Shown in pieces: positions 2,739 to 9,356 of a stretch of DNA of 22,975 bases. This DNA comes from a virus. Position 1 is the first letter of the stretch. Every line of letters starts with the position of its first letter. The stretch lies in IMG/VR virus record IMGVR_UViG_3300019375_000023; one strand, given 5' to 3'. The position numbers and the translations under genes are program-made. A model generated the notes under the pieces. The model was not told the DNA's origin. It ran no database searches and worked only from the letters and a program-made list of their open reading frames with translations.

Positions 2739-2898
2739 TTATTTTTTTACTTCATTCATTTTTTTATGTAATTCAGCACGCCCTTTACTAATAAAATAAG
2801 ATTGAATGTAAGTTAAATCACTGCTACGCTCACATAAATGGTATCCGCAGTAATCTAACCAGATTATGTCTTGCCCTTCATCACTCTTCAGGAAATTT
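2739..2898 (-). CDS. Tail assembly chaperone C-terminal extension (gpT-like), reachable only by a +1 frameshift
   Basis: Open frame ...NFLKSDEGQDIIWLDYCGYHLCERSSDLTYIQSYFISKGRAELHKKMNEVKK* fills the chaperone-TMP gap. It has no usable start codon, is bounded upstream by TAG, and is +1 relative to the chaperone frame. Confidence 0.7.
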
Positions 2899-3309
2899 AT
2901 CTATATCTCCTTTTGTAACCTCAAGGCCAGATAATTCATTAATTGCATCAACGATTTCATTTACTGCATCACGCGGTAATTTTCCAATGTCCTCTTCAGT
3001 CCATGGATCATCCGCATTTTTAGGATTGTCAAGACTCATTTCTATTTTACGATCACGTGCTTTTGCACCATTAACAGTTGCTAAATGAACGTTTATTTTT
3101 CCTTTGGCAACGGTTTCCCCTTGTATTCTACCACGAGATTTACTGTTTGTTTCGTAGGATTCCATTCCTTTAGCTTCGATTTTATCAAGTTCATCTAACT
3201 CTGAATTAGATAATGGTCTTAACCAGAGTTCACCATCTAATGCTTCAATGTGTATTTTTTTAGGGTCGTTGATACCTTGTAAAATTTGTGATTTTTTTAA
3301 TATTGCCAT
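2881..3309 (-). CDS. Tail assembly chaperone (gpG-like)
   Basis: Lies between tail tube and TMP. The ...IGKLPRDAVNEIVDAINELSGL C-terminus is typical of chaperones. GGAGG SD favours ATG 3309 over 3324. Confidence 0.75.
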   Translation of the reverse strand: MAILKKSQILQGINDPKKIHIEALDGELWLRPLSNSELDELDKIEAKGMESYETNSKSRGRIQGETVAKGKINVHLATVNGAKARDRKIEMSLDNPKNADDPWTEEDIGKLPRDAVNEIVDAINELSGLEVTKGDIDKFPEE

Positions 3310-3391: not shown

Positions 3392-3640
3392 TTATTGAGG
3401 CTCTAAAGTAATATCTAAAGTTTCAGTGCTAGAAGTAATTGTTACTTCCTGACTGTAAGTTACGTAACCGGTTTTAGTTGCTGTTACAGTAACCGTGCCT
3501 ACAGGAACATCATGCAAGGTACATCCACCTTGACTACCAGTAGTGCCTGTGATTTCTCCTATTGCAACTTCAACTTGACTTACAGGATTTGTTCCATCAG
3601 TTACGCTTATTGCTAAATCATCAATAGTTTCAGGATTCAC
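3392..3640 (-). CDS. PEGA / carboxypeptidase-regulatory-like (Ig-like beta-sandwich) domain, probably fused to the tail tube protein by frameshift
   Basis: LAISVTDG.NPV..VEV.IG...G.T...G...L.DVPVGTVTVTATKTGY..YSQEVTI pattern. The GTG start is 1 nt after the tail tube stop and has no separate SD. Confidence 0.75.
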   Translation of the reverse strand: MNPETIDDLAISVTDGTNPVSQVEVAIGEITGTTGSQGGCTLHDVPVGTVTVTATKTGYVTYSQEVTITSSTETLDITLEPQ

Positions 3641-3641
3641 C

Positions 3642-4673
3642 TCAGATGCTGGGAGCTATCTTAGGTTGTTTATTGACTAATTTAACATACATATCTGTTT
3701 TCTTAGTAGTTCCATCGGCTAATGTAACCTCTTCAGAACCTAATGTAGCCATGTTTAATGTTGCTTCCACATCATCAATACCACTACTGTCGAATTCAGC
3801 TAAGAGAGTACATTTAGGGAATAAAATAGTTAATCCTAGGCCAGGATATTCACATAATTCAACATCAATTTGTAATGGGACCTGTAATATTTTACATTTT
3901 GCAGGTTCAAGAAGGTCTACATCACCGTATCTTGCATCTAATATTGCTCTTACAGTTTCTTGAGTAAGTGTAGTTACAATGCTGATACTGTTTTCTCTTT
4001 TTCCTGCTTTTGCTTGTCCTTGCGGATGTCTGTAACCAAAGCCTATCGTTTTGTCAACGTCATGATTGTTACTTCCTTCGAAGGTAAAACTTGTCTGCAC
4101 GCCGGCAGGGTCATTACCATTGAGTTTTAACATGACATCGTAAAACATTATGAATAAATCATCTTCTAGTTCTTCGGCTCTTTCGTAATCGTTTTCACCG
4201 GCTAAAATTTCAGAGAACTCTGTTTTATAAATGAAGTCAGTTCCAAGAGTCATGTCTTCTGAAGATACTTCGAGTTTCATTGAATCGACGATTAAACCCA
4301 TTAAGTAGAAAATTAAATCGTCGTTAACTGCTTTTCCTCTGAAACTTTTTAATAATTTAGATTCACCACCCCAGAACTCATGGGTGTTTTTACCATTTTG
4401 GCCTGCTGTGAACTTATAATTATCTAAGAATCCGTAAAAGTAAGCTCCTAATATTTGGAGGTTTGCTGAAGTTTCTATACTACCTGTTGGTTTGATTACT
4501 CCAGCTCTTGCTTTTTGATTCATTCTTGAACCGAAACTTTTGGTTACCGGTTCGTCATTGAGTTTAAAATCCATGCTGTCTACATCATGGTCAAAAAGTA
4601 AGTGAAAATCATCTTTGTCTACTTCCTCACCATAGGCAGCTTCTGGTTCTAAACCAAATACTCTACAACTCAT
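3642..4673 (-). CDS. Major tail (tube) protein
   Basis: 343 aa, acidic and beta-rich, starting MSCRVFGLEPEAAYG. Positioned after the tail terminator and before the chaperone. GGTGA SD. Confidence 0.75.
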   Translation of the reverse strand: MSCRVFGLEPEAAYGEEVDKDDFHLLFDHDVDSMDFKLNDEPVTKSFGSRMNQKARAGVIKPTGSIETSANLQILGAYFYGFLDNYKFTAGQNGKNTHEFWGGESKLLKSFRGKAVNDDLIFYLMGLIVDSMKLEVSSEDMTLGTDFIYKTEFSEILAGENDYERAEELEDDLFIMFYDVMLKLNGNDPAGVQTSFTFEGSNNHDVDKTIGFGYRHPQGQAKAGKRENSISIVTTLTQETVRAILDARYGDVDLLEPAKCKILQVPLQIDVELCEYPGLGLTILFPKCTLLAEFDSSGIDDVEATLNMATLGSEEVTLADGTTKKTDMYVKLVNKQPKIAPSI

Positions 4674-6086: not shown

Positions 6087-6503
6087 TTAGTTTGCAGTAA
6101 TAGTTACAAAAATCTCCGCTGAAGTAGTACCAGCATCAGTGAATAACTCATAAACAGTTCCATCAGTCTTAGCAGAAGAAATAATATAATACTTATTACC
6201 AACGAAACCATCAACAGAGTTAGTTTTCACTTCAACCTCAGTATATCCATTAGATTCTACACCAGTTGTTTCTACAGTTCCAGTACCCCATTCAGTAGTT
6301 TTTTCAGCATCACTATAAGAAGTGAAAGCATAAACTACAGGAGTAAATTCAGGTTCTGGATCAGGAGTAGGTGTAGGGTCTGGAGTCTCTCCTTCAGCTT
6401 GAGCACGTAATCTCTCATAAGCTTTATGAGGATTACGTATAAAACCCTTGCGGATTTTACGTTTCTCTGTAAGAGTTAAATCATTCCAAGATTCTAAAGC
6501 CAT
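6087..6503 (-). CDS. Putative capsid decoration / head fibre protein
   Basis: Basic N-terminal helix, ETPDPTPTPDPEPE linker and Thr/Gly/Tyr-rich beta C-terminal domain, directly after the MCP. GGTGG SD supports ATG 6503. Confidence 0.55.
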   Translation of the reverse strand: MALESWNDLTLTEKRKIRKGFIRNPHKAYERLRAQAEGETPDPTPTPDPEPEFTPVVYAFTSYSDAEKTTEWGTGTVETTGVESNGYTEVEVKTNSVDGFVGNKYYIISSAKTDGTVYELFTDAGTTSAEIFVTITAN

Positions 6504-6512
6504 AAATACCAC

Positions 6513-7580
6513 CTATGCTTTGGCTTCATCTTGGATTTCAGCTAACTCCTCTAAGGTTAATTTTCCAACAATTAAGCTGCTGAATACTTCAAGTCCAGCA
6601 TCTCCTTTCATACGATACCAGAAGTTAGTTTGTTCATCACCAGCTTTACGTTCCATTTCCATGCTGATGTCTTTGTAAACACCCCATCTCATTAAGTCTG
6701 GGAATCCTCCAAGACATGTTGCAGTGTTATCTAATGCTTTACAATCTTCAGCATCCAATTCTGGAGCATATTTAACATTCCAACGTTTGTATTTTAAAGG
6801 AGCATCACCGACTTGCATACTGTCCCCAAGTGCAGTATTACGTGATTTTAAAAGATTCCTATAAGCATCTTCAACTTCAAAAGGAACATAAATATTAAAT
6901 CTATTCATAAGATTTGATTGTCTTACTCTTGCAGGTACCGCTGCAATTAATGCATCAAATAAAGCTTCAATAGTATCTTCATGAACATTAAATGCTTTTT
7001 CTGCATTAGTAGAACCTAATTCACTTGATTTTAAAGTAGTAGTTGCTTGTTTAACCCATCCATCGAAAGTATGGAACAAAAGTTCTTCATCATAATCTAA
7101 ATCAGTGTCCCCGAATACAGCAATAGCAGCTAAGTCTTCACCCATTGCTGCACCCATCATGGATTGTAGGGTAGATTCAAATTGTGTTCCTTCGATGTTG
7201 TCATCAAGATCATCATCAAGAATGGAAGTTTTTGCTTTTAATTTTTTAGCGTTTAATTCAGCAGAACCAAAACCGATTTTAGCTTCTTTTAAGTCGCTTT
7301 TGGTTGTTCTACTTTCTTTTAAACGTCCGTCTTGCAATACTCTTCCTTCGATTCTAGCACCTGAAGTTACTTCAGATTCTCTTGTCATTCTTTTGAATGC
7401 TGCATCGTTAAGAATAACGCTGTTGATTTGCATTTCACGTACAAAAGTGTTATATTGTTTTCTATCCAATATACCAGCGTTTGCAAACATTGCATCGTAC
7501 ATTGTCTCATCTTCTTTCATAGCACCATCTTTTCCGGCAGCAGCTACAACTTTAGTGAGCACATTATTCATATTCACCAT
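6513..7580 (-). CDS. Major capsid protein (HK97 fold)
   Basis: 355 aa after the protease/scaffold. AGILDRKQYNTFVREM N-arm, ELNAKKLKAKTSILDDDLDDNIEG, and AIAVFGD...FDGWVKQA motifs. Strong AGGTGAT SD. Confidence 0.88.
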   Translation of the reverse strand: MVNMNNVLTKVVAAAGKDGAMKEDETMYDAMFANAGILDRKQYNTFVREMQINSVILNDAAFKRMTRESEVTSGARIEGRVLQDGRLKESRTTKSDLKEAKIGFGSAELNAKKLKAKTSILDDDLDDNIEGTQFESTLQSMMGAAMGEDLAAIAVFGDTDLDYDEELLFHTFDGWVKQATTTLKSSELGSTNAEKAFNVHEDTIEALFDALIAAVPARVRQSNLMNRFNIYVPFEVEDAYRNLLKSRNTALGDSMQVGDAPLKYKRWNVKYAPELDAEDCKALDNTATCLGGFPDLMRWGVYKDISMEMERKAGDEQTNFWYRMKGDAGLEVFSSLIVGKLTLEELAEIQDEAKA

Positions 7581-9178: not shown

Positions 9179-9262
9179 TGGTAGAAGCAGGATTTGAACC
9201 TGCGGACCTACTAAAGGAATGAGTCCTAAGCACATCGTCTTTGACCACTTGACTATTCTACC
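9179..9262 (-). tRNA. tRNA-Leu(UAG), type II
   Basis: Acceptor GGTAGAA/TTCTACC plus A73. D arm GTC-AAGTGGTCAAA-GAC. Anticodon arm ATGTG-CTTAGGA-CTCAT (one T-T mismatch). Long variable arm. T arm GCAGG-TTCAAAT-CCTGC. No encoded CCA. Confidence 0.92.
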
Positions 9263-9276
9263 CAAAAAAAGTTGTA

Positions 9277-9348
9277 TAGTCCTATCAGGAGTCGAACCTG
9301 AGTCAGCGGGACCAAAACCCACCATGATTGCCATTACACCATAGGACT
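9277..9348 (-). tRNA. tRNA-Gln(UUG), archaeal type
   Basis: Acceptor AGTCCTA/TAGGACT (A1-U72) plus A73. Anticodon arm GTGGG-TTTTGGT-CCCGC. T arm TCAGG-TTCGACT-CCTGA. 72 nt, no encoded CCA. Confidence 0.93.
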
Positions 9349-9356
9349 AAAAAAAA

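Follow-up and report, generated by a model that had tools for sequence, protein, structure and literature searches.

The viral sequence IMGVR_UViG_3300019375_000023 from IMG/VR (22,975 nucleotides; "the window" denotes this whole stretch) contains a tail tube gene which, judging from its sequence and that of its relatives, very probably produces extended subunits by a programmed +1 frameshift at CCC_A, i.e. by a recoding event of the SPP1/Listeria-phage kind, here in an archaeal virus. For the virus family as a whole our confidence in a +1 tube frameshift is high; for the window's own site, where CCC is followed by a sense codon, it is somewhat lower. The virus would be a Methanobrevibacter-type siphovirus or provirus whose tube gene is decoded in two ways. 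The majority of the ribosomes would read GCT CCC AGC ATC TGA and release a tube protein of 343 amino acids (aa), and a fraction would slip one base forward with peptidyl-tRNA-Pro on the rare CCC codon, the slow peptidyl transfer from proline giving time for the slip. After re-pairing of the tRNA with CCA (3652-3650) the ribosome would continue with GCA TCT GAG GTG AAT and complete a 426-aa protein with the predicted junction ...QPKIAPASEVNPE.... This long form would consist of the tube protein, a linker and an 80-residue transthyretin-like sandwich hanging from the tube C-terminus, and with both forms entering the tail, part of the tube surface would bear the domain. The relevant features are listed in Table 1.

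Table 1. Features at the tube gene of the window and junction sequences of the loci in which the domain lies in the +1 frame.
Feature	Position in window	Strand	Remark
Tail tube protein gene, zero frame	3642..4673	minus	343 codons + TGA, 38.1 kDa product
TAG closing the +1 frame upstream	3656..3658	minus	5' limit of the shift window
Proposed +1 slip site CCC_A	3650..3653 (CCC 3653-3651, A 3650)	minus	peptidyl-tRNA-Pro would re-pair from CCC to CCA
TGA, zero-frame stop	3642..3644	minus	3' limit of the shift window
GAGGTGA, Shine-Dalgarno-like heptamer	3637..3643	minus	contains GTG 3640; 7 nt 3' of CCC
+1-frame extension ASEVNPET...LEPQ	3392..3649	minus	85 codons + TAA; linker + beta-sandwich
Junction CCC AGC ATC TGA			window, L003, L011, L024, L027
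Junction CCC AGT AAC TGA			L009, L018-L021
Junction CCC AGT AGC TGA			L030
Junction CCC AGT ... CCC TGA			L004
Junction CCC TAA			L010
Junction CCC TGA			L012, L015, L026

On the minus strand the 3' end of the tube gene reads AAG ATA GCT CCC AGC ATC TGA, followed by a single G and then by GTG (3640-3638) AAT CCT GAA. Owing to the upstream TAG the +1 frame opens just 11 nt ahead of the tube stop (11-nt overlap), and the shift is confined to 14 nt (3655-3642), within which CCC is the sole codon able to re-pair. CCC makes up 10 of the 214 proline codons (4.7%) in the open reading frames (ORFs) of the window and occurs only once in the tube gene; AGC accounts for 10.6% of the serine codons. A single slip yields ...KIAP-ASEVNPET... 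and a product (P0003) of 426 aa and 46.6 kDa. Residues 4-426 of this product align with the in-frame fusion of G008 (expectation value, E, 4e-146), and the product spans positions 1-427 of the profile phrog_35581 in a single stretch. Among 473 stop-free runs in the +1 frame of 15 window genes, the mean length was 10.5 codons and the longest run had 84; since none of them reaches 86 codons, the open +1 frame of the extension is not due to chance. All statements of the first-pass annotation about the tube end, the +1 frame and its closure by TAG were correct, its remark that CCC is unexpected in this gene agrees with the codon counts, and the two forms of about 38 and 47 kDa that it had predicted match the computed masses.

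The assignment of the zero-frame product was derived from synteny, profile searches and structure prediction. Every gene in the window is encoded on the minus strand, and the arrangement is the customary one for siphoviruses, running from packaging genes through a large MuF-type head protein, protease, capsid and neck proteins to tube, chaperone and tape measure. The position of the gene between the neck/tail-completion gene and the chaperone and tape measure genes agrees with a tube role, and the homologue in vir075, a Methanobrevibacter gottschalkii virus, is annotated as 'tail tube protein' (442 aa). The tube ORF covers positions 1-342 of the 434 positions of phrog_35581 (profile search, E 9e-110) and falls 0.1 bit short of the cut-off of Pfam Phage_tube_2 (26.9 bits, cut-off 27). 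Tube part and extension were folded as two separate models. For the AlphaFold model of the tube part (predicted local distance difference test, pLDDT, 76.8) the best structural matches in Foldseek were the tube chains of T5 pb6, DT57C and P74-26 (E 2e-9 to 1e-7, template modelling score 0.5-0.6), the sequence identity to T5 pb6/P74-26 being just 10-13%. Going by the modelled fold, the 343-aa protein is a siphovirus tail tube protein of the double-domain T5 pb6/P74-26 type.

The extension matches positions 378-427 of phrog_35581, the same profile that is occupied by the tube. It scores 34.9 bits (cut-off 32.3, E 2e-8) against Pfam CarboxypepD_reg (PF13620) and 22.3 bits (cut-off 20.8) against the related family PEGA (PF08308), the latter match comprising residues 42-86 only and lying beneath the stronger CarboxypepD_reg match. 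The AlphaFold model of the extension (pLDDT 89.5) displays a seven-stranded sandwich, for which Foldseek returned the transthyretin-like domains of carboxypeptidases D, N and M together with the N-terminal extension (NTE) domain of a SusC transporter (E 4e-5 to 7e-4). No Pfam match to an Ig or FN3 family was obtained for the extension, and the fold search was headed by transthyretin-like domains. According to these models the extension consists of a short linker and, after it, a transthyretin-like/CarboxypepD_reg (PEGA-like) beta-sandwich of about 80 residues. The label 'PEGA/Ig-like' given to it in the first-pass annotation thus holds for PEGA, which passes its cut-off, but not for a strict Ig/FN3 fold; transthyretin-like/CarboxypepD_reg describes the domain better. 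The ratio of nonsynonymous to synonymous substitution rates (dN/dS) of the extension amounts to 0.08 (versus L009), 0.10 (versus L018) and 0.29 (versus L011) at dS values of 0.30-0.76, and by this measure the extension is under purifying selection. By analogy with the role proposed for Ig-like decorations, the domain may bind glycans or cell surfaces.

For comparison, 105 related loci were collected from genomes of the genus Methanobrevibacter, IMG/VR and metagenomes, and each was sorted according to whether the domain shares the reading frame of the tube. It is shifted to +1 in 16 loci, continues the tube frame in 15 and is shifted to -1 in none; the rest are tubes without the domain. In the alignment, all of the 16 shifted loci show CCC, in frame, at one and the same junction position, as would be expected from the first-pass annotation, which had asked for conservation of CCC wherever the domain is out of frame. 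The shifted loci represent eight junction types, and CCC is the sole element common to all of them. Across the 12 different shifted tube ORFs, CCC is almost confined to the junction or its immediate neighbourhood, the one exception being located near the start of L018. As the junction is identical in independent assemblies (L003, L011, L024 and L027) which differ by up to 24% elsewhere (76-99% identity), it is not a sequencing error. In a tree of the tube part computed with a quick method, from which L015 and L030 are absent, the shifted state turns up in at least three lineages: the window's clade, L004, and L012, the last of which sits among in-frame genes. L015, itself diverged, adds another shifted case.

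The in-frame fusions include vir075 (442 aa) and the loci of G008, G006 and G011 (444-450 aa), and because these relatives carry both parts fused in frame, the domain belongs on the tube protein. At the junction, the nearest in-frame relative of the window (L023, 70% identical) has CCT, and L076-L082 and L100 have CCA. CCC is retained in frame in clade I (L001, L005-L007) and in L013. In L001 (5067-5075) and L005-L007 this in-frame CCC_A is followed by a +1 stop at once (CCC ATA GG read as CCA TAG), and in L013 the +1 stop comes four codons on; a +1 slip in these five loci would yield a short, domain-less tube, which is the opposite of the window's logic.

The principal alternative to frameshifting is a separate gene, with termination at the tube TGA, restart at GTG 3640 and release of a free 82-aa domain, a route which may also coexist with the frameshift. 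In favour of it, the TGA-G-GTG spacing is typical of coupled genes, all 13 loci with CCC_AGY or CCC_TAA junctions keep the GTG, and the in-frame L013 encodes the same valine with GTA. However, pairing of the anti-Shine-Dalgarno (anti-SD) sequence with the 18 nt that precede GTG 3640 yields no more than -2.7 kcal/mol, compared with -6 to -11.5 kcal/mol for most genes of the operon, in line with the first-pass annotation, which had seen no SD sequence for this ORF. Furthermore, neither ATG nor GTG nor TTG occurs anywhere in the extensions of L012, L015 and L026 (+1 ORFs of 78-91 codons), and frameshifting is therefore the only expression route in these loci. The domain is moreover covalently fused to the tube in 15 relatives, and the rare CCC is kept exactly at the join of the frames, which a separate gene would not require. 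Taken together, we consider a separate start unlikely.

A real shift could also take place elsewhere in the 14-nt stretch, for instance by out-of-frame pairing of GAG at the slow stop in ATC_TGA_G in a Ty3/antizyme-like manner. The zero-frame stop is positioned just two codons past CCC, the product would be equal in length (...IAPSI-EVNPE...), and TGA G is constant at junctions whose last sense codon varies (ATC, AAC, AGC). However, ATC, AAC and AGC are all unable to re-pair in the +1 frame, and none of the elements around the stop is shared by all eight junction types as CCC is. In addition, the stop abuts CCC in the CCC_TGA loci (L012, L015, L026) and the CCC_TAA locus (L010), and because it does so the shift site is fixed at CCC in these four of the eight types; a stop also directly follows the second CCC of L004, and does not do so in the window (CCC AGC ATC TGA). 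A shift at the stop is consequently very improbable. Still more remote is a broken gene, in which a one-base insertion in the C run or an assembly error would have split an in-frame fusion so that the domain is no longer made: removal of one C from CCC does restore an in-frame fusion and in-frame relatives exist, but the same layout recurs in isolate genomes, viral contigs and metagenomes, with 16 loci in all, and these are not copies of one faulty assembly (76-99% identity within the window's clade, ~48-54% in others), and extensions with a dN/dS of 0.08-0.29 remain open over 78-113 codons against a mean stop-free run of 10.5. Transcriptional slippage was dropped, a run of three C being too short for it.

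With regard to the cause of a slip at CCC, the tRNA inventory was taken from the nearest genome, G001, a draft assembly with a 99% identical provirus, and this inventory may differ from that of the window's own host. Among 61 tRNA hits in G001 (ARAGORN, Rfam), tRNA-Pro(UGG) was the only proline tRNA, whereas every other four-codon box also has a tRNA with G34. Two Rfam hits missed by ARAGORN were considered as a hidden tRNA-Pro(GGG) and rejected: one is an intron-containing tRNA-Met, and the other, a tRNA-like element, lacks a D arm and has a UCU loop. In E. coli the UGG isoacceptor has been reported to form a weak pair with CCC and to move to the more stable one (PMC4519876). Since tRNA-Pro(UGG) is the sole proline tRNA in G001, the move from CCC to CCA would be a slip from a wobble to a cognate codon. 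The driver of the slip is thus probably the lone tRNA-Pro(UGG), with a weak U-C wobble on CCC and perfect pairing on CCA. A hungry AGC/AGT codon was dropped as a driver: G001 has three tRNA-Ser(GCU) genes, and AGC in the A site is therefore probably not slow.

The window itself carries two virus-borne tRNA genes, Leu(UAG) and Gln(UUG), within the head module (9179-9349, minus strand, ARAGORN). G001 contains a dense array of about 20 tRNA genes, many of them duplicated (C97, ~8.9-15.2 kb), including one tRNA with a CUA anticodon that ARAGORN designates 'Pyl' (L131, 1498-1574); this may be a mobile or viral array that carries an amber-reading tRNA.

A number of observations weigh against a frameshift in the window. 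The codon after CCC in the window is AGC, a sense codon whose decoding is probably not slow, and not a stop. No stimulatory 3' RNA structure was found: for the 80 nt after CCC in nine loci the minimum free energy z-scores ranged from -1.2 to +1.6 relative to shuffled sequences, and the RNAalifold consensus of eleven loci comprised a 3-bp stem only, pseudoknots being outside this search. Neither was a consistently placed upstream SD-like (RF2-like) element found in the shifted loci; SD-like runs occur upstream of CCC in L010, L026 and L004 (second CCC) at variable distances of 1-13 nt, and there is none in the window. In-frame CCC_A is also present in two other window genes (13412, 21418), and because of this CCC_A alone cannot be highly shift-prone without cost. 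GTG 3640 stands one base past TGA and is kept throughout the window's clade. Finally, the tRNA evidence comes from the draft relative G001, not from the window's own assembly.

Downstream of the slip site, a RAGG motif occurs at the same 7-nt spacing 3' of CCC in all shifted loci. This motif, GAGGTGA in the window, may merely encode conserved Glu-Val or Glu-Glu residues; GAG and GTG are unusual codon choices for an AT-rich genome. With respect to the sense codon after CCC, the lack of a prominent RNA structure and the CCC_A in two other window genes, the frameshift efficiency may be low, which would suit a sparse decoration.

The tube gene is not the only gene in this operon with a +1 layout. 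In the chaperone gene (window 2739-2910, minus strand) the reading frame of the T part (motif WLDYCGY) is +1 relative to that of the G part. The same layout was present in 36 of 37 related loci (L001-L103), among them Methanobacterium virus Drs3 and vir075, and the overlap reads TTT CCT GA in all +1 loci except L013 (TTT CTT GA). This layout fits a conserved +1 slip from TTT to TTC (TTT_C) rather than the usual -1 G/GT frameshift. The first-pass annotation had proposed two +1 sites in one operon and a host which favours slippage; the former is supported, and the latter gains some support from the presence of tRNA-Pro(UGG) as the only proline tRNA in G001 and from the conserved TTT_C layout of the chaperone gene.

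As a tentative and at present rather doubtful extension of these findings, +1 frameshifting might be a general, stimulator-free device in these methanogen viruses that rests on the sparse tRNA set of the host, and CCC_A might also set the ratio of the two forms in either direction. In the case of such a general device, a lone isoacceptor would move from a wobble codon to its Watson-Crick cognate at two sites of one tail operon, i.e. from CCC to CCA with tRNA-Pro UGG in the tube gene and from TTT to TTC with tRNA-Phe GAA in the chaperone gene. If CCC_A sets the ratio, the shifted genes would give mostly short tubes and few long ones, and the in-frame CCC_A relatives (L001, L005-L007, L013) mostly long tubes and few short ones.

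With the tube reading as such, a recoding device of bacterial phages, the tube-decorating CCC +1 slip, would be extended to archaeal translation, where experimentally supported +1 frameshifts are very few. It would furthermore correct the annotation of this virus group, in which the small 'hypothetical' ORF after the tube gene would be the C-terminal part of the tube protein. The CCC_TGA, CCC_TAA, CCC_AGY and in-frame versions of one junction provide a natural series for the slip requirements of the archaeal ribosome. It would also agree with the published proposal that the virions of gut-associated methanogen viruses are decorated with domains of the adhesion type (PMC11375127).

Further unusual arrangements were noted around the tube and capsid genes of this virus group. 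The 499-aa tube ORF of L060 and L062 ends with TCC CCC AGT AGT CCA TAG, and a very acidic +1 tail of 50 residues follows CCC_A, which may be another use of the slip site. The domain-less loci L016, L031 and L052 have a short, Glu-rich acidic ORF (35-60 aa) in the -1 frame between the tube stop and the chaperone. In vir075 a second copy of the transthyretin-like domain (L001 2320-2607), 39% identical to that of the window, overlaps the capsid gene at its end, in a different frame, and corresponds to the published -1 capsid frameshift of the MSTV1-like viruses. The capsid gene of the window (6513-7580) has no such extension. Readthrough from this capsid gene into the ORF at 6087-6512 was considered and rejected: the GTG that follows the capsid stop results only from the way in which ORFs were listed, and the real start of that ORF is an ATG about 9 nt beyond this GTG, behind AGGTGG.

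Among known systems, T5 pb6 and P74-26 provide the best structural matches of the 343-aa tube part, and T5 pb6 bears a C-terminal Ig-like decoration which is fused in frame. Compared with the Ig/FN3 decorations of SPP1, T5 and MSTV1, the extension of the window is similar in size and position and differs in its sandwich fold. Closest with respect to the host are the MSTV1-like Methanobrevibacter viruses, in which the major capsid protein gains an Ig-like domain through a -1 frameshift at A_AAG_GAA in its gene (PMC11375127). They share with the window the host genus, belong to the same virus group as vir075, place a decoration domain on a fraction of a structural protein and include one relative with a direct fusion; the capsid instead of the tail tube, the -1 instead of the +1 direction and another slippery sequence set them apart. 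In PMC11375127 the term 'tail tube' appears only once, in the abbreviation list of a figure legend, and a tube frameshift is not described. Likewise, no report of a CCC +1 tail-tube slip in an archaeal virus was found, a 2023 compendium (doi 10.1038/s41564-023-01485-w) lying outside the coverage.

The bacterial precedents named in the first-pass annotation, +1 slips at CCC-N in SPP1 and Listeria phages, are as described in the literature. In the Listeria phages A118, A500 and PSA the long form of Tsh arises by a +1 shift at CCC_UGA, and in the PSA cps gene the +1 shift takes place at ACA_CCC_UCC, i.e. with a sense codon after CCC and a 3' pseudoknot (PMC5009743). A low-GC host in which CCC accounts for ~5% of the proline codons (4.7% in the window) and slippage of tRNA-Pro in the P site are common to both cases; the relatives L012, L015 and L026 exhibit the same CCC_TGA, and PSA cps illustrates that a sense codon after CCC is allowed. 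The window differs by its archaeal host and in that no hairpin or other RNA structure stood out 3' of its site on folding, a search that did not extend to pseudoknots. In the Bacillus phage SPP1, the tail tube proteins gp17.1 and gp17.1* are related by a +1 frameshift at CCC_UAA (PMC6316719). Here the host is an archaeon instead, the sense codon AGC follows CCC, the slip would lead onto CCA and not onto the CCU of SPP1, the domain is transthyretin-like compared with FN3 in SPP1, and the tube is of the double-domain T5/P74-26 type. Both systems nevertheless have in common a rare CCC shortly before the tube gene ends, slippage onto an overlapping proline codon, two forms of one tube protein and a C-terminal extension of ~87 residues that would form a beta-sandwich decoration, and the relative L010 possesses exactly the CCC_TAA of SPP1.

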